Made by a program: the position numbers and the translations under genes. Below, in pieces: positions 15,587 through 32,919 of a stretch of DNA of 64,000 nt. This DNA is from a virus. The stretch covers positions 45,578 through 109,577 of the IMG/VR virus record IMGVR_UViG_3300032304_003098; one strand, given 5' to 3'. The notes below the pieces were generated by a model, which had not been told where the DNA came from, searched no databases, and saw only the letters and a list, made by a program, of their open reading frames with translations. Position 1 is the first letter of the stretch. Every line of letters starts with the position of its first letter.

Positions 15587-16225
15587 ATGAAATGGCTAAA
15601 GCAGTTTTTTAATAAATCGAAAAAAATGAATTGGAAAGAAAAAAGCTTAGAGGAGATCCAGGAATTCTTTCAAACTAAAGATTTTCAATGGTTGAAAGGT
15701 GACCAGATGGGAAACATAGAAAAATTTAAAGCAATTGAAAAAGATGAATCTACTGGATTTACTTTCATTTGTTTCCGTTCTGGAGGAAGAATGAACGTAG
15801 ATTTAGTACAAGAATATATGGATGTTTTTCCCTCCCAAAACATTGACTTTGCTTCATTGGCCTCTGCTTCTCCGCCCCAGCAACCCACTGGAGAAAAATC
15901 AACGGCAGTTAAAAGTAAAACCAATACAGTTTCTTCGATACAACTTTCAGAGTCTCCGATATATAGTTTGTTGAAGAAACAAAAAAACAATTGGGTTAAC
16001 GTGAATATTACCTTGAAATTGAATCTTCCTTCGAAGAATTTGTATGGTGTGCTTACTTCTTCTTTCGAAGATGCCGACACTGAAATCATCAATTTTGTGA
16101 CTGAAGGCGTAGATATTGATGACATCAAAGCTGCTTTAGGTGAATCAATACTGTCGTACTATGACAAGAAAAAAAACCTAGTTTCTTCTGATAAATTTTT
16201 AGACCAAATTGAAGATGGAAAGTAA
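15587..16225 (+). CDS. hypothetical protein
   Basis: Two-domain ORF with an S/P-rich linker; true start may be the Met at 15626. Confidence 0.8.
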   Translation: MKWLKQFFNKSKKMNWKEKSLEEIQEFFQTKDFQWLKGDQMGNIEKFKAIEKDESTGFTFICFRSGGRMNVDLVQEYMDVFPSQNIDFASLASASPPQQPTGEKSTAVKSKTNTVSSIQLSESPIYSLLKKQKNNWVNVNITLKLNLPSKNLYGVLTSSFEDADTEIINFVTEGVDIDDIKAALGESILSYYDKKKNLVSSDKFLDQIEDGK

Positions 16226-17120: not shown

Positions 17121-17453
17121 ATGATTGATTGTTTGGCTGGATTTAAATTTTTTCTGACCGAATGCTCTGCCAAAGAGACCAAAAAGAAATTCTTTGGTTA
17201 TTCAGACTTCTATCTTATAGATATTGGGAAGGTTATCCGCGAACTGGGATATAATAATCAAAATTTAACCCAAGAGTCTGAATTCATCATAAATTACACT
17301 GTTCGTAGGAAAATAGACCAGGGGATATATAATACAAAGAATAACACCATTTTGATCGTCCACAAAAATATCTCTCCAGATTTTATTGAAAATCTGACTT
17401 GTTTTTTGAAAGAATACGGAGATAATTTTCAGTTTGAGATAGAAATGGTTTAA
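17121..17453 (+). CDS. hypothetical protein
   Basis: Tightly packed ORF; contains a GATATATA at 17324-17331 that could serve the downstream baseplate operon. Confidence 0.7.
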   Translation: MIDCLAGFKFFLTECSAKETKKKFFGYSDFYLIDIGKVIRELGYNNQNLTQESEFIINYTVRRKIDQGIYNTKNNTILIVHKNISPDFIENLTCFLKEYGDNFQFEIEMV

Positions 17454-21552: not shown

Positions 21553-23913
21553 ATGGGAATTCAGGCCACAGACAGAAATAGAAATTTGTTTTTGAAAGGA
21601 TTTAGACTTTCAGATCAAGGAAAAAATGAGGATCCCACATATTTGGGTTTCAAGTTTGTCTTTGATTTTGGTACCTTACCTGTAAATCCTGAATATGGTT
21701 GGGCTCCGAGTCCATTGCTGCGAATCGCCAATTATACCGCCGGCAATGGAGCAGGGATGGCCTCAGGACTTGAAAACCCTTTTGGACAACCTGCTTACAA
21801 TTTAGGTGGACCTATTTATTATTCCACTTACAATTATTTGTTACAAAGAGAAGGAGCTTTTGGATCAGAATCCGATAGCATCAAAAGAGCCAATGCTCTG
21901 CGACAATTTCAGGTTTTATTGAACAATATCAATAATAATTCTCCTTGGTTTTTCCAATCCATTGAAGGATTAGATAAATTAGATAAAATTACCAGAACTG
22001 GTTTCCAAGATGAAGCGGGTTTTGATGGATTCAATCCTCAAAAAACAGACGGTAAAACTTTAACAATTGGTTGCTTAGAATCCTTGAATTTGAGGATTTC
22101 TGCCTTGGCCGATTTATACGAAACTGCTATGTTCGATGCCGATAACATGAGATGGCTAGTGCCCAGAAATTTGAGAAAATTCACGATGTATATTTTCGTG
22201 ACGGAAATTAGGAATTTCTTTAAAACCTCTAGACTAACTGGTGCGTCAACTGTTTTGGCTTCTTTAGATAATTTATCTAATGTTTTAACCACCAATCGCA
22301 ATCCTGGTTCTAATATTCAAAATCTGGGAATAGAGGACCCCATCGAAAATGTGTCCGGAAATCCAGGCAACTCTTTTACCAGTTTTGTGTCGAATGTGTT
22401 TGGTCAATCTGGTTTACAAAATGATGTGCAGGCTTTCCGCAACCAACAAGATCAAAGTGGCATCAAACCCGTTTTTATTTATGAGTGTCACCAGTGTGAA
22501 TTTGATTTTAGCACCAGCACTCCTCTAGCTTCGACAATTGATATGGGTAGCTCCTCGGCAGATTCACTCATGGCCAAGCAAAGTTTTAAGATTCACGTGG
22601 GCAAGGTCAGAATGAAAAATCAATATCCCAACATTCGAAACGATAAAAACCCCTTGATTCTAGCAGATGGTGCATACCAATCAAGATCCTCTGTACAAAC
22701 TGCTGCTTTAACTTTGGAAACCATCGCCAGCCAAGCTAATGAATTGATCACCAATTTTACTTCTGCTGCTGTCAACGATTTGGTTAATGAAGGGGTCAAC
22801 CAATTTGTCAATCCCGCTTTGTCTGGGTTAAACCAATCCCTCCTAGGCAACATTTATTCGTTCAATCCATCTCAAATTGGAAGAATGGTTACTCCAGGTG
22901 GATTCAACTTCAACGATGCTCAAAATTTCCTCAATGGAGCAGCGTCAACTGGGATAGATAACATTTTTAAGGGCAATTTACCCAACCCGCAAAAGGTGGG
23001 ATTGGGAGGTCCACCAGAAAGAGCCTACCCCCCAATTTCTCCTCCGGAAGACGTGTATCCCAGAGTTCCTGGTACTGATTTAGGAGCTCCAGGTAGAGTT
23101 TATCCACCCCCTACTGGAGACGTGTATGATTCTGTACCTGGCCAGGATTTAGGACCACCTGATAGAGTTTATCCCGTTCCTACAGGAGATGTTTATGATA
23201 CGGTGCCTGGACTCGATTTAGGACCACCAGATCGGGTTTATCCACGACCTGTTGGGGATGTTTACCCGGATGTACCAGGGACAGATCTGGGAGTTCCTGA
23301 TCGAGTTTATCCAAATCCAGTGGGAGATGTTTATGACCAAGTTCCTGGTTCAGATCTCGGTGTTCCTGATCGAGTGTATCCAGTTACAAGTGGGGATGTA
23401 TACGAGGATGTACCTGGGCCAGATCTAGGAGTTCCCGATCGAGTTTATCCTATTCCCGGAGGAGATGTTTATACGGATGTTTCAGGTAGAGATTTGGGTG
23501 TACCTGATAGGGTTTATCCCACTGATCCCATAGGGGACATTTATTCTGGTGTACCTGGACCGGATTTGGGAGTTCCTGATCGGGTTTATCCCATCACTCG
23601 AGGAGATGTTTATACAGAAAACAACTTTACGGACTCTTTGCCACGTGAACAAGTTTACGCTCCTAGCACTTTTGCAAATATAGCAGGAGAGCTTAGAGCC
23701 AGAGAAAATTCTTTTACTGAACCCCCTGGATCTGTGTATGAGATTCCGAGGGCAAGGCCTATTCAAGGTGGACTGGGTGATGTTTATCCTCCCACAGTAG
23801 GAGATTTTATTTTAGAGCCTCCTTTGAATTTAGGAAACATGAAACCTTCTACTAAATTCAACCCTAGTTTAGGTACTTTTAATCCCACCGAAGAAATAGA
23901 AGACGAACAGTAA
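21553..23913 (+). CDS. tail-tube-fold baseplate protein (gp54/gp19-like) with a C-terminal Pro/Asp-rich repeat
   Basis: LTIGCLESLNLRI...LRKFTMYIFVTEIR tube-like pattern; 23-aa repeats in the C-terminal third. Confidence 0.5.
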   Translation: MGIQATDRNRNLFLKGFRLSDQGKNEDPTYLGFKFVFDFGTLPVNPEYGWAPSPLLRIANYTAGNGAGMASGLENPFGQPAYNLGGPIYYSTYNYLLQREGAFGSESDSIKRANALRQFQVLLNNINNNSPWFFQSIEGLDKLDKITRTGFQDEAGFDGFNPQKTDGKTLTIGCLESLNLRISALADLYETAMFDADNMRWLVPRNLRKFTMYIFVTEIRNFFKTSRLTGASTVLASLDNLSNVLTTNRNPGSNIQNLGIEDPIENVSGNPGNSFTSFVSNVFGQSGLQNDVQAFRNQQDQSGIKPVFIYECHQCEFDFSTSTPLASTIDMGSSSADSLMAKQSFKIHVGKVRMKNQYPNIRNDKNPLILADGAYQSRSSVQTAALTLETIASQANELITNFTSAAVNDLVNEGVNQFVNPALSGLNQSLLGNIYSFNPSQIGRMVTPGGFNFNDAQNFLNGAASTGIDNIFKGNLPNPQKVGLGGPPERAYPPISPPEDVYPRVPGTDLGAPGRVYPPPTGDVYDSVPGQDLGPPDRVYPVPTGDVYDTVPGLDLGPPDRVYPRPVGDVYPDVPGTDLGVPDRVYPNPVGDVYDQVPGSDLGVPDRVYPVTSGDVYEDVPGPDLGVPDRVYPIPGGDVYTDVSGRDLGVPDRVYPTDPIGDIYSGVPGPDLGVPDRVYPITRGDVYTENNFTDSLPREQVYAPSTFANIAGELRARENSFTEPPGSVYEIPRARPIQGGLGDVYPPTVGDFILEPPLNLGNMKPSTKFNPSLGTFNPTEEIEDEQ
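23047..23601 (+). repeat. 8 x ~69-bp coding tandem repeat (23-aa unit GDVYxDVPGxDLGVPDRVYPxxx)
   Basis: Counted directly; seven 23-aa units and one 24-aa unit. Confidence 0.95.
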
Positions 23914-24581
23914 TGCCAAGCCCCCGTTTTTATTTAGGACAGGTTGTAGATATCAACGATCCCAGAAAATCTGGCCGAGCTAGAATCAGAGTTTTTGGAT
24001 TGTTTGATGGTTTGGAGGACCAGGACATTCCGTGGGCTAGTCAAATCAGCGGATTATCTTTTGGGAAAGGCGGAGCTGGTACCATCTCTATCCCTAAATT
24101 AGGAGCGGTTGTTGTTGTCCAGTTCGATGGACAGAATTATTACAAGATGAACTATTATGGAGAGAAGGACTATGCCCAGGACATGTTAGCCGAGATTGCT
24201 GACTCCTATGAAGGAGCCCAAGTTCTCGTGTATGACACAGAGGCTGAGCCTGGACCTTTAACATTATTTTACACTAAAAAAAAGGGAGCTGTTTTTTCTC
24301 TGGGAAATGCTAAAATTCAATTGGATACTCAAGATGGTGGTCAGCTGAGAATCGTAATTGAAATGGGGCAAGACCAAATTCGGATGGAAAATAACAAAGT
24401 GATTATTAACTCTAATAATATAGAACTGGGCGAAGCTGCCATCGAGGCAGTGATTAAAGGGAATACCTTTCAAACTTATTTTAATTCACACACCCATGTT
24501 GGTAATCTGGGTGCTCCCACTTCTCCTCCCGTGGTTCCTTCTACTCCTGACCATCTTTCTACGGTGAGTAAAACTAGATAA
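23913..24581 (+). CDS. gp5: baseplate central spike (gp5 N-terminal OB fold / P2 gpV-like)
   Basis: YLGQVVDINDPRKSGRARIRVFG...IPWA...IPKLGAVVVVQF OB-fold motif; C-terminal HTH (HxH) tip. Confidence 0.85.
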   Translation: MPSPRFYLGQVVDINDPRKSGRARIRVFGLFDGLEDQDIPWASQISGLSFGKGGAGTISIPKLGAVVVVQFDGQNYYKMNYYGEKDYAQDMLAEIADSYEGAQVLVYDTEAEPGPLTLFYTKKKGAVFSLGNAKIQLDTQDGGQLRIVIEMGQDQIRMENNKVIINSNNIELGEAAIEAVIKGNTFQTYFNSHTHVGNLGAPTSPPVVPSTPDHLSTVSKTR

Positions 24582-24583
24582 TT

Positions 24584-27331
24584 ATGCTAATTCCAAAATG
24601 TTTAACAGACCAGCAAATTTCCAATTTTGTAGACAGGGTCAATGAAACGGCTGATGAAATCATAGTAGACAGCAAATTCGAAATACCCAGACCCGAATTA
24701 CCTGGGCTAGGTTTATTGGTGAAGCTCCAAATTAGAATTTTTGAAAAATCAATCCTCAGCAATCTAGCCCCTATTTTAATAGGTAAACAAATTTTAGAAG
24801 AAGCTTTCAAACGATTGAATGTTCTAGGTTACATTAGAGAAAGATTAAATGAATTAAGAACCTTTTTTTCGAATCCAATCCAGTTTCTTTTGGACCAAGG
24901 AGTGAATAACCCATTAGCCGAAGATTTTCCTTTCCCTGTTGCTTTGCTCTTTGGCAACAGGTCTTCCGGAGGAAATACACAAACATTGTTAAGAGAAATT
25001 GAGACTGTCCCTACCGAAATAACTTCTTCTGATCTTCTTTTCAATTACAAAATTGAATTTAATTCCATCTTAGATCCAGAATCCGGGATCATCACAACTC
25101 CCAACGATTCTCTGGAAACTTTAAGACAAATGAAAATTAACTTCGTCAGTGAAAATGGTGAAACTGATTCTCCATTGGTTTTTCTCAAACCTGGAGATTA
25201 TTTTTCGTTAGATTTCGAAAATTTTACCAACACATTCAGAGTTTCCTCTGTTGATTTGGGAACAAACTTTGTTTCACTTTTTTTTCAATTGGAGGCAAGT
25301 TCTTCCCAAAGTCTTGGAACACAAGAAGAAAAAGTTTTTGTGCCCGGATTTTCAAATGCTTCCTTGAGACTATCAAGAAAAATAAACTTAAGACAATTTC
25401 TTACTCCCGATGGTTTTTTAAGAATCCCATTTTCTGCTTTGGGTATCAATCTCCCGTTAATAGATAGAATTTCTTTAGAACTTGGAAATTTTGATCGACT
25501 TTCGGAAAACAATCCAACTTATAAATTTATTAAAGACCTTGAGGCCAGGACCAATTTGGATTTCTCCAAAGTCTTAGGGGATATGATCGATGGAATTTTC
25601 CCGGTAATTGATTGGGAAGAAATTCAAAAAGATCCTACATTAAGAAATGCCCAAGAAGTAGCCAAATTAGAATTATTGAATTTGGCTCGTTTTCTTCAAA
25701 TTGGAACTGAAAATCCCTTTTTTCTAATTAAAATTATTTTGAATTATTTGAAATTGTTGCTGTTGCCTATTTCTGTTTTCATCTCCGTTATTCAAACAGT
25801 GGCTTCACAAATTTCCAACCCAATTTCTTTAATTAAAACTGTTTTCAAAATTATATCAAATCCAATAAGGTTTTTATGTGATATAATTTCTGATGCTTTT
25901 TTAAAATTTCTTCGTCCCTATTTAGAACCTCCGCTAATACCTTTGATCCCGTGGAATGAACTTGTACAAGATCCAAATGATCGAGGTAGAGGACTCAAGC
26001 CTTTATTTTCTGATCTTATTTGTGGGTCTTTTGATAGAAAATTAAACTCATATAAACCAGATGCAAATTTCTTTGTTCGGGAGTCATCTAAGTTACAAAC
26101 TTTACCTGGAGAAAGTCCAATCGTGCAATTGAGTTATAATTTAACCCAAAATCCTATCCCAGAGTTGGGAGAGGTTAGTTTACAATCCCAAATTCTGAAC
26201 CAAAATAGTTCTATGAGATTTAGCACAATCACAGATACGGTAGAAAATGGTTTGGCTTATTTGGCTTCTCTTAAAGTAGGGGACACGTTTTATTTGAGTT
26301 CAAATGGACAATTTCAAAATTTTAGAGTTACTGCCAAAAACTTATTGGAATTTAATCAGCAATCATATTTCGATTTCCTTGTGCAGCCTGTGGATGTGGT
26401 TGAAGTTTATGGAAATTCAGAAAATCAACAACTTCAATCTGCCTATAATGGGATAGTTTCTGACCAATTTAAAGCCTCTATTAGTGTGAATAATCCCAAT
26501 AAAACTTTTCTGTTTATTTTGGAGAGATACTTACCCCTTAAAGCTATTGCAGCCTGGGAAAGTATCAAAGGATTATTCTCGATCACTGTTGCTTTGGCTG
26601 CTCAAATTCCCCGTTTAATCCCATTGTGTTTTACCTGTATTTTCTCTCAAAATAAACCAAATCAAAATCCTATTTCTCAAACACAAGAGGCTTCCGGAGA
26701 TTTACTCCAAGGTTTGATTTCTTCGTTAGGCATTGAAACCGATCCAAATAGGAACAACTTTGGGGAATATAAATCGGGAGAGGCTAGAGAGATTTCTCAA
26801 GAATTTTTTAGAGACATTTTATTGAGAGAGATTTATCCAGGGCAGCCGGGGGGTTCCGAAAATGCACCTAATACGGAAGGAGGGATTCAAGAAGTCCTTC
26901 TGGATCTTCAAAAAATAAGACAAGAGGAGGGAAAGCCTATTTCTGTTTTCAGAAGAAATTTACCAGCGGAATTTCAATCTAACTTCCGTTGGGATTCTTT
27001 AACTTTAAATCAAATCGGGGAGAATCTGAAAGTTCTTTCCAGAGTAGCATACGAACTTTCTTTTAGAGCAACTGACAGAAGCCAAAGTGATTTGGTTGAT
27101 AAATCGATTCCTATCACAGTATGGGCTTTGAACGAAAATGGAGAAGGTGAGTTCAAGTTAATCAACAACGGTCAACTATTTCAATCTTTTCTGGATTATT
27201 CTTTTTTCAGAAATTATGATCCTGAAATACCCACAACTGAAAATAGGTTTGAAGCAAGATTTGTGAGGTATTATGTTCAATACAATTTTAGGTTCGCCAA
27301 AGATATTTTATTACCTGCTCTTCAAAATTAA
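24584..27331 (+). CDS. large structural protein adjacent to the spike
   Basis: 915-aa ORF; hydrophobic helical segments alternate with two copies of a beta-rich module. Confidence 0.6.
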   Translation: MLIPKCLTDQQISNFVDRVNETADEIIVDSKFEIPRPELPGLGLLVKLQIRIFEKSILSNLAPILIGKQILEEAFKRLNVLGYIRERLNELRTFFSNPIQFLLDQGVNNPLAEDFPFPVALLFGNRSSGGNTQTLLREIETVPTEITSSDLLFNYKIEFNSILDPESGIITTPNDSLETLRQMKINFVSENGETDSPLVFLKPGDYFSLDFENFTNTFRVSSVDLGTNFVSLFFQLEASSSQSLGTQEEKVFVPGFSNASLRLSRKINLRQFLTPDGFLRIPFSALGINLPLIDRISLELGNFDRLSENNPTYKFIKDLEARTNLDFSKVLGDMIDGIFPVIDWEEIQKDPTLRNAQEVAKLELLNLARFLQIGTENPFFLIKIILNYLKLLLLPISVFISVIQTVASQISNPISLIKTVFKIISNPIRFLCDIISDAFLKFLRPYLEPPLIPLIPWNELVQDPNDRGRGLKPLFSDLICGSFDRKLNSYKPDANFFVRESSKLQTLPGESPIVQLSYNLTQNPIPELGEVSLQSQILNQNSSMRFSTITDTVENGLAYLASLKVGDTFYLSSNGQFQNFRVTAKNLLEFNQQSYFDFLVQPVDVVEVYGNSENQQLQSAYNGIVSDQFKASISVNNPNKTFLFILERYLPLKAIAAWESIKGLFSITVALAAQIPRLIPLCFTCIFSQNKPNQNPISQTQEASGDLLQGLISSLGIETDPNRNNFGEYKSGEAREISQEFFRDILLREIYPGQPGGSENAPNTEGGIQEVLLDLQKIRQEEGKPISVFRRNLPAEFQSNFRWDSLTLNQIGENLKVLSRVAYELSFRATDRSQSDLVDKSIPITVWALNENGEGEFKLINNGQLFQSFLDYSFFRNYDPEIPTTENRFEARFVRYYVQYNFRFAKDILLPALQN

Positions 27332-27360
27332 GATTTCGTTTTTAGTTTAGGTTTTGAAAA

Positions 27361-27368
27361 GATATATA
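27361..27368 (+). promoter_or_regulatory. putative late promoter GATATATA
   Basis: 24 nt before ATG 27393. Confidence 0.65.
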
Positions 27369-27392
27369 GATTGTCTTTTTAAACCTAAAAAA

Positions 27393-28553
27393 ATGAAATC
27401 AAAAAAAATTTCTATCGAAACCACAGGTTTCAACTGGGATATTCCCAACAATTTCACGGTTAATTCTAAATTCAAAACCGCAGAAAAAACCAAAGTTTAT
27501 TGTCACGAGAGTTACGCTTTGGAATTGTACAATCTCATGGTAAGCAACATGATGGGGTTGAATGTCTCTAAAGATTTAACACCAGGTGTTTCTTACTCTT
27601 GTGTCATCTCCGCTTCGGATGCAACACACGCATTGGCACAAACTTCATCCGGCCAAACCATCTACATCGACCTTAAAAAAGAAAAAAAGGATGCTGATAG
27701 ATTAGGCCTGGGGGAGGTAATCAATTTCGAAGTCGGCAACGAGGTTTCCGCTGTTGTGAGACAAATCTCTGGTACCTATTACGGTTCGGTCGTTGAAAGT
27801 TACACTCAAAATTTGAAAACCGAATTCTTTGATCAAATCAAAAAGGAAACTCTGGCTTACGAAGCTAGAGTGGAGTCTATCAATAAAGGAGGATACATTG
27901 TGGATGTTCATGGAATCAAATGTTTCTTACCTGGATCCTTAGCTGCTGCTAATAAGATTACTGACTTTGACGCTTATATTGGCAAAAAGTTTTATGTTAT
28001 GATTGATGGTTACGTGGCAGCAAAAGACATTTTTGTTGTTTCCTACAAAAAGTATTTACAAAGAATCATGGATCATAAAATCCAAGAACTAGATTTGAGT
28101 AAAAAATACAAAGGACATGTAACAGGTACTTCTGCTTTTGGTGTTTTTGTCGAATGGGAAGAAATTTTCACTGGATTAATTCATAAAACTGAATTCGAAA
28201 ATCAAGTTATAACTGGTTTTAATCCTGGAGATGAAATTGAATTTTACATCAAAGAAATTAAAGACGACAATAGATTGACTTTGACCTTTGGAGAACCTTT
28301 AGAAAAAAATAAGTGGTTGTTCGAATTGAAGAAAAGTGTAGAAGAAGGCACAATCGAACCCATGGAAGCTATTGTTAAGCACAAAAGAAAAAATGGAGCC
28401 TTGATTGAAATTGGGGACTCTGGCCAACTAGCACTAGTTCCACAGGAAAAATTGGGCAAAAATTCAAAAAATCTTCAAGCTGGTGACACCATTAGAGTTC
28501 AGGTTTATCAGGTAGATGCCTTAGCAGGAAAAATATTCGCTCGACAAGTTTAA
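27393..28553 (+). CDS. rpsA: ribosomal protein S1-like protein (four S1/OB domains)
   Basis: VESINKGGYIVDVHGIKCFLPGSL, GHVTGTSAFGVFVEW...GLIHKTE, GDEIEFYI and GDTIRVQVYQVD are S1-domain signatures; start moved to ATG 27393. Confidence 0.88.
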   Translation: MKSKKISIETTGFNWDIPNNFTVNSKFKTAEKTKVYCHESYALELYNLMVSNMMGLNVSKDLTPGVSYSCVISASDATHALAQTSSGQTIYIDLKKEKKDADRLGLGEVINFEVGNEVSAVVRQISGTYYGSVVESYTQNLKTEFFDQIKKETLAYEARVESINKGGYIVDVHGIKCFLPGSLAAANKITDFDAYIGKKFYVMIDGYVAAKDIFVVSYKKYLQRIMDHKIQELDLSKKYKGHVTGTSAFGVFVEWEEIFTGLIHKTEFENQVITGFNPGDEIEFYIKEIKDDNRLTLTFGEPLEKNKWLFELKKSVEEGTIEPMEAIVKHKRKNGALIEIGDSGQLALVPQEKLGKNSKNLQAGDTIRVQVYQVDALAGKIFARQV

Positions 28554-29944
28554 TGAACTCACATTTTGACAAATACCAGGCTCTCTCTTCTGCCATTCTC
28601 GGATTTGAATTTGAATTCTTTTCCGAGATGGTTAGAGGCCGAATTGTCGAGTCTTTGTCTAAATTATTGAACAAAAAAGTCGTTTTATCTGACAAGTACC
28701 ACTCCAAAATTCCAGTCAGCGCCAATAGCTTCAAGTTGGAACCCGATTATTCAGGAGGCAGTAAAATGAACGAACTCGTCACAGGTCCTATGCCTTATGG
28801 GGAAGCTATGCCTGTGTTAATTAAGATTTTGAAATGGATTGAGTCCAACGGTTGGACCAACGATCATTGTGCATTTCAATTTTCAATTTCATTTGATCCC
28901 ACTAATCGGGAATTGGAAAAAATGGAAAGATTAGACCGCCTGAAGTTTATCTTGGGTATTGACGAGGGAATTGTGTATTCTTCTTTTGGAAATCGAACCA
29001 ACAATGTGTATGCTAAATCTCTAAAAAAGATTGTTCCAGCCAATAAATTTTCTATTTTAGAAAATATCACCAGCATAGATCCCAAACTTTTCAAATTGCC
29101 AGGCGAGAAATATTATGGAGCCAATTTCACCAAATTGCAAGACGGATATGTTGAAATACGCTATCTTGGAGGCAAGGATTACCAAAAGAAAATTGGACCT
29201 ATTTTAGAAGTCACAGATTACGTTACACTGTTGTTACATGACATTTTATCCGGTAAAAAAGGATATGGTCAAGGTGATGTGGAAAAGTTACAGGAGATGA
29301 TGAGACAGCACACAAAAGTGGTCAGAAGCTTCTCAAATCCAGATTCTTTCTTTGTAAATTATCCAGATTTCCACGTGTTGGTCGATTTGAAGGGTTACGA
29401 AGAAAACATCAAAACTTATTGGTCACACATCAGAGAAAAAATTTTCGACCTTATTGTGGAAGGTGGAATAAACTCTTGTTTCTTCAATTATGATACCTCG
29501 ATTGGGCGGTTCCAGATCAAGGATGCTAAAAGTAAAAATGGTCTGATTCTGAAAGACATTGATATTTTCGATAGCGTAGTAAAAAATGGAAAATTATCAA
29601 ATTGTAATTTATACGGAACTCAGGTTAAAAATTCAGAGTTGTATGATTGCAAACTTGTTTTTGGTAACAAACTTTTCGAAAGCAAATTTCAAAATTCAAT
29701 TGCAGACTATGGTAACCTATTGGAGAATTGTTATATAGATTGTCCTCAACAAATGGTAGACTGTGAAGTTAAAGGCGGAGTGTTAAGGAAAGCAGATTTG
29801 GGTAGAAATTCGCTCATTTCAGAACAAACTGAAAAGGTGAAAGATTTCAATGAAATCAGAACAAGTCGTTTTATTTCCGATTCTAGATTGAAAAATTTGA
29901 ACAACCCAATCACCAAGATTAAATTCAAAAATATCAACTACTAA
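28553..29944 (+). CDS. amidoligase (COOH-NH2 ligase)-like protein with C-terminal beta-helix
   Basis: GFEFEF, EPDYSG, ELVTGP, WTNDHC, KYYGANF, VEIRYLGG motifs; pentapeptide-like repeats in the last third. Confidence 0.75.
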   Translation: MNSHFDKYQALSSAILGFEFEFFSEMVRGRIVESLSKLLNKKVVLSDKYHSKIPVSANSFKLEPDYSGGSKMNELVTGPMPYGEAMPVLIKILKWIESNGWTNDHCAFQFSISFDPTNRELEKMERLDRLKFILGIDEGIVYSSFGNRTNNVYAKSLKKIVPANKFSILENITSIDPKLFKLPGEKYYGANFTKLQDGYVEIRYLGGKDYQKKIGPILEVTDYVTLLLHDILSGKKGYGQGDVEKLQEMMRQHTKVVRSFSNPDSFFVNYPDFHVLVDLKGYEENIKTYWSHIREKIFDLIVEGGINSCFFNYDTSIGRFQIKDAKSKNGLILKDIDIFDSVVKNGKLSNCNLYGTQVKNSELYDCKLVFGNKLFESKFQNSIADYGNLLENCYIDCPQQMVDCEVKGGVLRKADLGRNSLISEQTEKVKDFNEIRTSRFISDSRLKNLNNPITKIKFKNINY

Positions 29945-29945
29945 T

Positions 29946-30731
29946 ATGACTTTAGAAGAATTGATTCAGGAAATTAAGGATGATCTTTCAGCTAGTTGCG
30001 CTTTGCCTTATAATCTCAACGACCAAGAGATCAAAAGAATTATCAATCGTGCTAAGGCCTGGATGTATGACAACTATCAGTATGCAGTCGAAAAAAGGTA
30101 CTTTGTCCTGGGGGGTGCTTTCTTCCAAACCCCTCAATTTAGAAACACCAGACAGGTTCAACTCCCAGATAAGATTGTCACAGTTTTCGATGTGAGAGAA
30201 ACCAACGGGAATGGAATTTCTGGCAACCCAGACAAAGATTTCGGAGATTCAAAGTTGATTGGTTCCGAACTCCTGCTTTCTCCTTTTACTGGGGACAATC
30301 TGGTTTATAGAACTGTAATGTATTCTTATTTTGATTTGGCTAAGGCTTATCTTCTGCCAACTTACGCTTTCAGTTGGAATAAAAACACCAAAAAATTAAC
30401 CATTCTGGGTAGAGATCCAACTCCCCCCATTAGGTCGTCTTCTCCCCAAAGTAACGCTGGCGGTTACAATTTGACACAGTCTGTAGTTGTCAGTTGCTAC
30501 GTGGCAATCGAGGATTATGAATTATACAATGATGAACTTTTTATTCGATATTGTTTTGCTAAAGCCAAACAATCTTTAGTAAAAGTATTGAGTGCGTTCG
30601 ATTATAACCTACCCGGAGGCGTAAGAGTGAACACTTCCACTTTGTCACAAGAAGCTTCTACCGAATTACAGGAGGTGATGGCTATGATTAATGGCGAAAA
30701 CACGCCATCTTATTTTTTGCAGTGGTCGTGA
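29946..30731 (+). CDS. gp13: neck / head-completion protein (T4 gp13-like)
   Basis: FIRYCFAKAK...LPGGVRVN C-terminal signature; size and position fit. Confidence 0.8.
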   Translation: MTLEELIQEIKDDLSASCALPYNLNDQEIKRIINRAKAWMYDNYQYAVEKRYFVLGGAFFQTPQFRNTRQVQLPDKIVTVFDVRETNGNGISGNPDKDFGDSKLIGSELLLSPFTGDNLVYRTVMYSYFDLAKAYLLPTYAFSWNKNTKKLTILGRDPTPPIRSSSPQSNAGGYNLTQSVVVSCYVAIEDYELYNDELFIRYCFAKAKQSLVKVLSAFDYNLPGGVRVNTSTLSQEASTELQEVMAMINGENTPSYFLQWS

Positions 30732-30785
30732 AAAATATACATTTTTCATTCCAGATTTTCCAATTTTTCCTTCTTATTTTACCTG

Positions 30786-30793
30786 GATATATA
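30786..30793 (+). promoter_or_regulatory. putative late promoter GATATATA
   Basis: 19 nt before ATG 30813. Confidence 0.65.
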
Positions 30794-30812
30794 ATGGGAA
30801 AGCAATTTTTCC

Positions 30813-31184
30813 ATGATAGAAATTTACAATCGAGATCCAGGAGATCCTTTTTATAAATCCGATGTTTTAGAAACAACAGATCCGATCGAAATTTGCATCG
30901 GTCAACTTAAAATGTTGTTACTAACGATCAAAGGAGAGGTACTTGGAGATCCCTCTTTTGGTTTAAGTTTAGAGGAATTGGTTTTTAGCCAAGAGCTTTC
31001 ACAAAAAACACTCACTGACGAAATTGCCAGGCAAATCAAAAATTATGTGCCTATTTTCTATCAATTGAATGGCTATTTCAATGTTGAATTTTATGCTGGC
31101 ACAGAAAGAGATATTGTCTATCTAAATTTCTTTATTCCAAGCTACGGTGGCAAAAGTCCCCTGGTTTCCCTGAAAGTAACTTAA
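30813..31184 (+). CDS. gp25: baseplate wedge / sheath initiator (T4 gp25-like)
   Basis: LLLTIKGEVLGDPSFGLSLEELVF matches the gp25 T-x-x-GE...P-x-FG motif. Confidence 0.85.
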   Translation: MIEIYNRDPGDPFYKSDVLETTDPIEICIGQLKMLLLTIKGEVLGDPSFGLSLEELVFSQELSQKTLTDEIARQIKNYVPIFYQLNGYFNVEFYAGTERDIVYLNFFIPSYGGKSPLVSLKVT

Positions 31185-31188
31185 AAGT

Positions 31189-32919
31189 ATGTCAACTAAT
31201 ATTTTCCAGAAAAACAATATCCTGATTAGAGGTCTGTTAAACGACACCTACAATTTTCTTCAGAGAACTTACAATCAAACTCGAAATGTGTTTACTGTTG
31301 CCTCTGCCTGGGGTCAAATTCTTTTTGTGTTGGAAAATATTTCTCAGCTGATTTTATACTTTATCGAGGATTCAATCACAGAATTAAACATTTATCAGGC
31401 CAGCCGGGACTATTCCATCAAAAGTTTAGCCCGGATTGCTGGTTATGATCCCGCAAGAGGCATGGCTGCTCAAGGAGAAGTTGCTATCACCTGGAATTTG
31501 AGAGAATCTGATGTGGCTGGAGGAGCAGTGATTTTGTCTGGCAGACCTAAAATACAATGTGAACAAAATGGATTAATTTACACTCTGTTACTGAATGGAC
31601 CTTCGGTTAAAGTTCCTTTAAATAGAGGGGCTACCTTCAATTTTAAGATTGTACAAGGGGCTTTTCAAACATCTACTTTTACTGGAACTGGAGCAGCTTT
31701 ACAAAGTTATAATGTCATATCAAAATCTGGAACTTTAATAGACCAATTTTACGTTGATATTTCAGTCAACGATGTGCCATGGAAAAAATATTTTTCTTTG
31801 TATGATATTCCTTTGAATGCTAGAGGCTATCTGGTTAAATCCGGGATTTCTGAAGGAATTGATATTTATTTTGGGAATGGAAATTTTGGACAACCCCCAT
31901 TAAGAGGAAGTATTATCAAAGCTGAATATCTTCAAACAAGCGGATTTAGTGGCAACATTGCCTCTAGAAAAGATTTGCAATTGACCTATCGATTTATGGA
32001 TACTGGCACAGATCTATTTGGTAAAGAGGTTAATTTAAACACGTATCTTACAATTTTAGGAGTGCTGGATCCATCTTTTGGCAGTGATCCAGAACCCATT
32101 GAATTAACTCGTTTGGTCGCACCCAAAACTTCTAGAGCCTTTGTGTTTGCTAACTCGGAGAACTATGAAATTTATTTACAAAGATTTAACATTTTCTCTC
32201 AGATCCATGCATTCACCACTTATGGAGATGATTTTTTAGATGATGATAACGTTATTTATCTTTTCCTGGTACCCGATGTATCGATTAATATTTTGAGTGG
32301 TCAGGATTATTTTGACGTGCCGGCAGAAAATTTCGTTTTAACCACTGCTCAGAAGCTTTCGATTTTAAATTTATTGGAAGATTCCGGACAAATGATTGCC
32401 ACAACTGTTGTGAAAATTTTAGATCCGGAAATTCAAAACTTCGTTGGAAATCTAGTTTTGTCTATTTTCGAAGGTTATGACCCAGAAATTATCAAGGACA
32501 AAGCTCGTAGTTCTATTGCTGAGTATTTCTTAAATTTGAAAAGAAGAGATAGAATTCCAAAATCGGACATCATTGCTATTGTTGAAGCAATTGAGGGGGT
32601 TGATTCCGTTTCTTTTTATTTTGTGGGTCAGACCAACGAAGAATATCACACCGCGGTTGATAAACTACCTAATGTTAGTACGGCTCAATTAAATCGTCAA
32701 ATTGGTTTAGACGAGTTTGGCGACGTTATAATTAACACAGGAGAATTGGTTTTGATAAGAGGTGGTTGGACGGATAGGTATGGCACGTATTACGAGGTCG
32801 GCATTGTACCAGGTAAACCATCCGCTTTGAATATTGTGATTTCTTCAATCAATCCTAGAACCCTCTCAAATCAATTAAGCTTGGAGCAAAGAGCAAAAAT
32901 CATAGCTCAAAATCAGTAG
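31189..32919 (+). CDS. gp6: baseplate wedge protein (T4 gp6 / baseplate J-like)
   Basis: SIKSLARIAGYDP, IYFGNGNFG, YLQTSG..GN, GSDPE, ENYEIYL motifs. Confidence 0.88.
   Translation: MSTNIFQKNNILIRGLLNDTYNFLQRTYNQTRNVFTVASAWGQILFVLENISQLILYFIEDSITELNIYQASRDYSIKSLARIAGYDPARGMAAQGEVAITWNLRESDVAGGAVILSGRPKIQCEQNGLIYTLLLNGPSVKVPLNRGATFNFKIVQGAFQTSTFTGTGAALQSYNVISKSGTLIDQFYVDISVNDVPWKKYFSLYDIPLNARGYLVKSGISEGIDIYFGNGNFGQPPLRGSIIKAEYLQTSGFSGNIASRKDLQLTYRFMDTGTDLFGKEVNLNTYLTILGVLDPSFGSDPEPIELTRLVAPKTSRAFVFANSENYEIYLQRFNIFSQIHAFTTYGDDFLDDDNVIYLFLVPDVSINILSGQDYFDVPAENFVLTTAQKLSILNLLEDSGQMIATTVVKILDPEIQNFVGNLVLSIFEGYDPEIIKDKARSSIAEYFLNLKRRDRIPKSDIIAIVEAIEGVDSVSFYFVGQTNEEYHTAVDKLPNVSTAQLNRQIGLDEFGDVIINTGELVLIRGGWTDRYGTYYEVGIVPGKPSALNIVISSINPRTLSNQLSLEQRAKIIAQNQ

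Follow-up and report, generated by a model that had tools for sequence, protein, structure and literature searches.

A shortened bS1-like ribosomal protein encoded among the virion genes of a large uncultured freshwater phage

Introduction

Why would a phage carry a gene for a ribosomal protein among its baseplate and neck genes? The question is raised by a large uncultured freshwater phage represented by IMG/VR record IMGVR_UViG_3300032304_003098, which is 109.6 kb long with a CheckV completeness of ~40%. The 3' 64 kb of that record, here called the window and used for all positions unless stated otherwise, places a homolog of ribosomal protein S1 (bS1) in just this setting. An initial annotation proposed that it is a shortened S1 that replaces or competes with host bS1 late in infection, to the benefit of A-rich structural mRNAs that lack a Shine-Dalgarno (SD) sequence. 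The reading that we favor, with moderate confidence, is that phage S1 supplements or replaces loosely bound host bS1 on the 30S subunit during late infection. The evidence ranges from domain architecture and synteny, which are observed directly, to structure prediction and analogy, which make ribosome docking and late expression plausible.

Results and Discussion

A shortened relative of bS1

A mechanically generated list of open reading frames (ORFs) runs the gene from a TTG at 27354 to 28553. Sequence comparison places the true start at the ATG at 27393, because relatives align from that Met and the TTG precedes the promoter motif described below. Three stretches of the resulting 386-amino-acid protein match Pfam S1 (PF00575; whole-protein E value of 8.7e-18), with 64.9 bits against a gathering threshold of 22, and residues 326-373 match S1_2 (E value of 1.1e-4). 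An AlphaFold2 model built on 34 relatives (mean pLDDT, 78) contains four OB barrels joined by helices (OB1 to OB4; residue limits in Table 1), which are preceded by a low-confidence stretch (residues 1-40) and a helix (residues 41-53). Pfam and the model thus agree with the four S1-type OB domains after a ~60-residue N-terminal segment that had been read from the sequence initially.

Several comparisons identify the protein as a genuine bS1 relative rather than a generic S1-domain protein. In a sequence search of the PDB, every significant match was bS1; the top match was 9zcd_A (591 amino acids; 4.8e-15), and E. coli bS1 (2.4e-11) aligned collinearly, with query residues 111-319 on E. coli residues 61-277 (domains D1-D3). 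The rpsA model TIGR00717 (NCBIfam) was matched over positions 52-338 of 516. By structure alignment, residues 48-223 of the predicted model superpose on residues 3-174 of E. coli bS1 in a 30S pre-initiation complex (Z score of 13.1; root mean square deviation of 4.1 over 168 residues), and residues 49-301 on residues 2-261 (Z score of 13.4); Foldseek E values were 1e-21 to 1e-11. In the predicted model, the N-terminal helix and the OB1-OB2 module are arranged as they are on the 30S subunit.

Hidden Markov models (HMMs) for domains D1-D6, built from 30 cellular bS1 sequences, were used to score each phage OB domain. OB2 is orthologous to D2: it scored 39.1 bits to the D2 HMM and <7 to the other five, and it matched a Saprospirales bS1 by BLASTP and with an hhalign probability of 94%. 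It carries the D2 signature KGG[FY]xVxxxGxxxFLPGS, which is unique to bS1 among S1-domain proteins. The E. coli D2 residues in contact with mRNA, K117, F120, and F130 (PMC10123108), correspond to K165, Y168, and F178 of the phage protein, and G166, G167, and F178 are invariant in the phage S1 family, as are F249, F252, H264, K265, and G279 of OB3. OB3 scored 12.8-21.5 bits to D1, D3, D4, and D5. OB4 scored 11.2 bits to D6 and ≤6.4 to the others, and lacks the F..F..H signature. The architecture is D1'-D2-Dx-D6. The claim of a shortened S1 therefore holds across PDB matches, the rpsA model, structure alignment, and domain HMMs, and the protein looks like an internally reduced bS1, not a plain C-terminal truncation.

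An N-terminal anchor of Bacteroidia type

The segment ahead of OB1, initially described as an extension, is present but is not phage specific: it matches the N-terminal anchor of Bacteroidia bS1. The 30S structure of Flavobacterium johnsoniae shows a helix-loop-helix at bS1 residues 4-40 that docks on uS2 and uS8, with residues 11-20 (FLANFNWHNF) touching uS8 (PMC13000457). The corresponding phage sequence is G-F13-N-W15-D, and F13 and W15 are kept in all of 34 relatives. We extracted cellular bS1 from 29 genomes of the class that contains a Saprospirales metagenome-assembled genome (MAG), the Bacteroidia, and found F[DN]W ~40 residues ahead of domain 1 in 23 of 29; phage S1 has this motif as well. 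In Bacteroidia bS1 it is followed by a Y..EE...LY..TL helix that resembles VYCHE.YA.ELY in the phage protein. With hhalign, the N-terminal profiles alone aligned over 34 columns at a P value of 0.001 (reversed control, 0.1), and the alignment showed an 11-residue insertion in the phage anchor that lengthens the spacer to the helix. Searched against the PDB on their own, the first 66 residues gave no meaningful match. Helix 41-53 superposes on the uS2-binding N-terminal helix of E. coli bS1, which stacks on uS2 Phe32 (PMC10123108), and it falls within the uS2 interface predicted below. The likeness to Bacteroidia bS1 suggests that the phage infects Bacteroidia, that the gene came from them, and that the protein docks on the ribosome. 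One related contig was binned in a Saprospirales MAG, which is a weak hint of the host.

Predicted docking on uS2

The complex prediction with uS2 that the initial annotation called for supports binding. A search for the uS2 gene in the incomplete Saprospirales MAG did not find it, and F. johnsoniae uS2 was used as a stand-in for the host protein, together with phage S1 residues 1-152 and their alignment. The predicted complex scored 0.79, against 0.00 for the best of three controls; a score of 0.79 was reached by 58 of 80 solved complexes and by 2 of 110 mismatched pairs. Between runs, ≥87% of contacts agreed, and the partner pLDDT was at least 77. The predicted complex uses uS2 residues 7-8, 16-20, 32-39, and 204-210, and the OB1 loop at residues 83-89 touches the Zn pocket region. 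E. coli bS1 binds uS2 at Met6/Arg7, His18, Phe32, and the Zn pocket at 203-205 (PMC10123108), which is the same face. Because the face is that of the solved E. coli complexes, the score may be inflated and may partly reflect memory of those structures. Conservation points the same way and is independent of model confidence: within residues 2-65, 8 of the 11 positions conserved in ≥50% of 121 divergent members fall in the predicted interface (Fisher's exact test, P = 0.004). Altogether, the prediction supports binding of phage S1 to uS2 but does not show it.

Could the protein instead act on RNA away from the ribosome, as a chaperone, an mRNA stabilizer, or a cofactor of a phage nuclease or polymerase, much as host S1 serves T4 RegB and Q-beta replicase? 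Such extraribosomal duties of host bS1 during phage infection are known (PMC13157829), domains 1-2 are precisely those used by Q-beta replicase (4q7j and 4r71 are among the fold matches), and the 2020 report on S1 in huge phages leaves "on or off the ribosome" undecided (PMC7162821). However, a conserved Bacteroidia-specific anchor whose conserved positions lie in the predicted uS2 interface is hard to explain unless the protein visits the ribosome, and we judge a purely off-ribosome role to be quite improbable.

A core gene of a huge-phage clade

The phage S1 family falls into 538 clusters when grouped at 90% identity; at 50% (E value of <1e-30) there are 117, nearly all of 330-450 amino acids. 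At least 567 IMG/VR loci encode the family. A DNA-level search of a phage collection with the S1 gene gave no match. Synteny was examined in 80 loci, and all 80 share one order: a sheath-like gene, two conserved genes, the hub, usually a variable large gene, S1, an amidoligase-like gene, an adaptor, gp25, and gp6. S1 identity among loci is 55-60%, equal to the conservation of the structural genes. The order sheath-hub-S1-amidoligase-adaptor is kept at ~30% identity in the 462-kb huge phage LR756500, a Lak megaphage homolog is 33% identical over residues 13-298, and complete relatives span 270-434 kb. In five complete relatives, bS21 was looked for and not found. S1 is a core gene of this huge-phage clade and is under purifying selection.

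The phylogeny against host bS1 proposed in the initial annotation was partly informative. A quick maximum-likelihood tree of the D2-D3 region was built from 111 short S1 sequences, restricted to those of 330-450 amino acids with a FLPGS-type motif, and 32 cellular bS1 sequences including that of E. coli. One long branch (SH-aLRT support, 100) divides the short S1 from the cellular bS1, which indicates an old, single phage lineage. We dropped the attempt to name a donor lineage from this tree, because E. coli bS1 is itself unresolved among the cellular sequences.

The unbroken gene order from hub to neck (80 of 80 loci), together with the OB folds that baseplate hubs do contain, might suggest that the protein serves in the structure or assembly of the baseplate or neck and simply reuses OB folds. 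Yet the D2 signature of OB2 is specific to bS1, the likeness to bS1 is collinear over several domains, the N-terminal anchor is of the Bacteroidia bS1 type, and a PHROGs search with the protein returned no family, structural or other. A structural role thus seems very improbable indeed.

A late-type promoter and an A-rich leader

The motif GATATATA begins 32 nucleotides (nt) 5' of the S1 start codon. It occurs 11 times on the plus strand of the window and never on the minus strand, with 1.8 occurrences expected, and none of 100 shuffles reached 11. Copies lie 24-32 nt ahead of the prohead protease/capsid operon, S1, gp25, and several head-internal-like ORFs, and near variants precede a tail fiber gene and a gene for a 1,395-amino-acid protein. 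In related loci, the motif is found upstream of S1 in 44 of 45, within spacers that have otherwise diverged. The genome also encodes a gp55-like late sigma factor of 119 amino acids (phrog_234; E value of 1e-13). In T4, the late box TATAAATA is read by gp55. A strand-specific, overrepresented 8-bp box and a gp55-like sigma gene are the components of T4-type late transcription, as judged here from sequence, and by analogy with T4 we infer that GATATATA is a late promoter. The late-type promoter that the initial annotation placed before S1 is borne out to this extent by motif statistics, conservation, and the sigma gene.

Three further copies of GATATATA lie inside ORFs, at 794-801, 15958-15965, and 17324-17331. 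The copy at 794 is within the gene for the 675-amino-acid prohead protease, directly after the protease domain, and could drive a nested product.

Between promoter and start codon, the S1 leader has TTAAAC followed by an A-run. TTAAAC with an A-run within 30 nt of the ATG is found in 17 of 35 distinct S1 leaders of relatives, where TTAAAC lies 7-10 nt ahead of the ATG, and in 4 of 432 other ORF leaders. This element may act as an operator or as a translational signal particular to the S1 gene; autoregulation, as in E. coli rpsA, is a guess by analogy. Across the window, leaders have 46% A at positions -20 to -1, against 32% overall, and an SD-like 4-mer occurs in 5 of 42. A-rich, SD-less structural mRNAs, as initially described, are thus seen, but the suggestion that S1 favors phage over host mRNAs is not supported: Bacteroidia host mRNAs, too, have leaders that are A-rich and SD-less (PMC13000457, PMC9976891), so the two are not obviously distinguished by leader composition. 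Promoter, leader, and S1 may together form one late-expression circuit.

An imperfect inverted repeat around the promoter motif and the start codon could form an RNA hairpin in which the S1 start codon would be base-paired to the last part of the gene before it (z score of -5.76; none of 200 shuffles was equally stable). A transcript begun at GATATATA would be without its left arm. Strong folding is confined to this phage and its closest relatives. Among 32 distinct S1 promoters of relatives, the flanking duplex had a median of -6.7, against -6.2 for shuffles, and was no better than at 39 other GATATATA promoters. With energies like those of controls, we rejected the hairpin both as a conserved feature of the family and as the reason for TTAAAC conservation.

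The setting of S1 within a virion gene block also suits a takeover factor delivered by the virion: S1 would be made late, packaged, and injected with the DNA, so that it captures host ribosomes as soon as the next infection begins. Ribosome binding fits this scheme too, with a different timing. The late-type promoter and the fixed slot among virion genes speak for it, as do ORFs of the window that resemble head-internal proteins, share leaders, and follow the same promoter, and packaging and injection have also been raised for phage bS21 (PMC9723584). However, the S1 N terminus lacks the (V/I)Q(D/N)F..F...LNE-type leader of the putative internal proteins, for which reason we rejected a capsid-targeting leader on S1, and its conserved N-terminal residues are explained by the Bacteroidia bS1 anchor. 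Delivery by the virion seems to us distinctly unlikely.

How phage S1 might act

Starting from the homology, domain architecture, conservation, synteny, and conserved promoter motif that we observe, we infer ribosome binding, late timing, and an effect on translation. In the reading that we favor, supplementation or replacement of host bS1, a shortened Bacteroidia-type bS1 paralog would be made from a gp55-type late promoter alongside the virion genes. Its anchor (the F-N-W segment, strand-helix 34-53, and OB1) would dock on the host 30S subunit, on uS2 and probably uS8, where host bS1, loosely bound and exchangeable, normally sits. OB2 would then be placed at the mRNA exit channel, the canonical OB3 and the D6-like OB4 would grip A/U-rich, SD-less leaders, and initiation would keep up while structural proteins are made in bulk. 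An additional supply of S1 during bulk synthesis of virion proteins is plausible.

Several findings weigh against this reading. A role in translation gives no explanation for the fixed slot of S1 between hub and neck genes. The protein is not an rpsA equivalog (72.7 bits against the TIGR00717 cutoff of 577). OB1 gave no sequence signal with any of the six bS1 domain HMMs, and its equivalence to D1 is by structure only. The four C-terminal RNA-binding domains D3-D6 of bS1 are not all present, and phage S1 has one canonical RNA-binding domain to the four of bS1, with OB4 resembling D6. The uS2 prediction relies on a stand-in host protein and resembles solved S1-uS2 complexes. Finally, two freshwater metatranscriptome runs from one study contain only short contigs of relatives (150-440 nt; 90-97% identical) that cover parts of S1, amidoligase, and adaptor. 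Because these contigs could stem from carried-over DNA and do not span any gene junction by ≥31 nt, they show neither transcription nor a start site.

A stronger proposal is that phage S1 makes specialized late-infection ribosomes. The enlarged anchor would outcompete host bS1 at uS2/uS8, and the single canonical domain would favor the ~10-18-nt A-rich leaders of GATATATA transcripts over longer host leaders. S1 might additionally control its own TTAAAC leader, and in one variant it would be packaged and act at the start of the next infection. We consider such specialization unlikely. Alternatively, a short S1 could fill the uS2 site as a dominant-negative decoy and shut off the host by blocking translation that depends on host bS1. 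The docking module is retained while the RNA-binding part is cut from four domains to one canonical and one D6-like domain, and N-terminal fragments of E. coli S1 inhibit translation of leadered mRNAs. However, phage late mRNAs have SD-less leaders of the kind that needs bS1 (PMC9976891), so a pure late block would harm the phage, and the canonical RNA-binding residues of OB3 and the mRNA pocket of OB2 are kept, invariant in the family. We give the decoy little credence.

Relation to known systems

Bacteroidia bS1 is the closest system, with that of F. johnsoniae (PMC13000457; 9zcd_A) as the best match. In both proteins, F-[ND]-W precedes a helix that binds uS2 in cellular bS1 and is predicted to do so in the phage. 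Both also pair OB1 with an OB2 that bears the D2 signature KGG[FY]..V...G...FLPGS, as a docking module that is putative in the phage, contain a canonical S1 domain for RNA binding, and end in a D6-like domain; both are used where mRNAs lack an SD sequence. They differ in size (386 amino acids and four OB domains in the phage; ~590 and six in the cell) and are ~28% identical over D2-D3; the phage protein also has the 11-residue anchor insertion and an OB1 diverged beyond sequence recognition, and unlike cellular bS1 it is phage encoded, behind a late-type promoter. The four-domain S1 of low-GC Gram-positive bacteria and the three-domain S1 of cyanobacteria and chloroplasts are likewise shortened (3-4 domains) and of similar length, and the chlororibosome S1 homolog 9tvu_a aligns with the phage model (Z score of 12.4). 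However, sequence scores to these short forms are much weaker than to Gram-negative bS1, and phage S1 keeps the D2 signature and the Bacteroidia anchor.

A "possible rpS1" in huge phages, its correlation with SD absence, and a takeover hypothesis were put forward by Al-Shayeb et al. in 2020 (PMC7162821). The huge-phage proteins (Lak, LR756500-LR756504, and LR745206) belong to the same family as phage S1 by tblastn (26-36% identity; E values of 1e-17 to 1e-35), with the same tie to SD-less genomes and the same proposed role, and ours is likewise a multi-S1-domain protein of a huge phage with SD-less genes. The text of the report that was searched does not describe the D1'-D2-Dx-D6 make-up, the Bacteroidia anchor, the core-gene synteny, or the promoter motif. 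A jumbo cyanophage is also reported to encode bS1 (PMC13157829). The phage bS21 of large freshwater Bacteroidetes phages, which lies in structural modules and is expressed late by metatranscriptomics (Chen et al. 2022; PMC9723584), is also a host-type 30S initiation protein within a structural gene block and is likewise proposed to enter host ribosomes in late replication. It differs in being another ribosomal protein, with metatranscriptomic support for late expression, unlike S1 here. What is new is the D1'-D2-Dx-D6 make-up, host-type anchor, conserved promoter, and fixed synteny; this is no new kind of system.

Should phage S1 dock on host ribosomes, a virus would clearly be providing its own form of the ribosomal protein that recruits mRNA. 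The gene is also an ancient core trait of a very large phage clade that would infect Bacteroidia, which initiate translation without SD pairing. Reconstituted F. johnsoniae translation (PMC9976891) and ribosome structures (PMC13000457) make the question directly testable.

Neighboring genes and other observations

The gene coordinates are collected in Table 1. The stop codon of S1, TAA (28551-28553), shares a base with the ATG (28553) of a 463-amino-acid ORF in a TAATG junction, and 1 nt separates the end of that ORF from the adaptor ORF. The coupling to an amidoligase and then a neck gene noted initially is thus present in the overlap and the phrog_211 match, with a weak amidoligase match: Amidoligase_2 aligns with residues 16-118 as a sub-threshold match. 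The Atlas clusters nearest to this ORF are exclusively viral and amidoligase-like. It adjoins S1 in 80 of 80 loci, and we have considered that the two form a functional pair.

Table 1. Features of the phage S1 locus (positions in the window)
Feature	Position	Strand	Evidence
Baseplate hub (gp5 OB-like), upstream of S1	23913..24581	+	Phage_base_V, E 4.8e-5; phrog_430, E 6.6e-16
Imperfect inverted repeat (putative RNA hairpin) around promoter motif and S1 start codon	27332..27400	+	Folding free energy (dG) of -17.2 kcal/mol
Late-type promoter motif GATATATA	27361..27368	+	32 nt (motif start to start codon) 5' of S1 ATG
S1 leader, TTAAAC then A-run, no SD	27379..27392	+	Comparison with leaders of relatives
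Phage bS1-like protein (P0001), 386 aa	27393..28553, stop included	+	Start alignment, Pfam, PDB matches, AlphaFold2 model
N-terminal ribosome anchor (predicted), aa 1-61: F13-N-W15, strand K34-E39, helix 41-53	27393..27575	+	Likeness to Bacteroidia bS1
OB1, aa 62-132, D1-equivalent by structure only	27576..27788	+	Structural alignment to E. coli bS1
OB2, aa 154-217, orthologous to bS1 domain 2 (NKGGYxVxxxGIKCFLPGS)	27852..28043	+	D2 HMM
OB3, aa 236-298, canonical RNA-binding S1 domain	28098..28286	+	Pfam S1 best stretch, 238-295
OB4, aa 322-386, noncanonical, nearest bS1 domain 6	28356..28550	+	D6 HMM; S1_2
Amidoligase-like gene, coupled downstream of S1	28553..29944	+	TAATG; Amidoligase_2, E 0.003
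Head-tail adaptor Ad2 (neck), 261 aa	29946..30731	+	phrog_211, E 1.7e-11

Between the hub and S1 lies an ORF of 915 amino acids (24584-27331). No other gene of the block varies nearly as much: relatives show 30-40% identity or no match, against 55-90% for its neighbors. Pfam and PHROG scans of this ORF gave no match; it may be a spike tip or host-recognition protein.

A few observations concern other genes and models. The 31 cellular bS1 sequences from the class Bacteroidia score 506-573 bits with TIGR00717, just below its cutoff, and the model would therefore not call Bacteroidia bS1 an equivalog. At L092 8055-8900 (G000 28055-28900), the gp55-like sigma gene is directly followed by an ORF for a TnsA-like endonuclease (PF08722; E value of 1.4e-17), possibly a homing-type insertion, and an ECF-like sigma factor is encoded at L092 116-736. 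Further along, two ORFs of 548 and 533 amino acids lie 2 nt apart (L092 9530-12780; G000 29530-32780), the first of which encodes a portal protein (phrog_213; E value of 6e-60).

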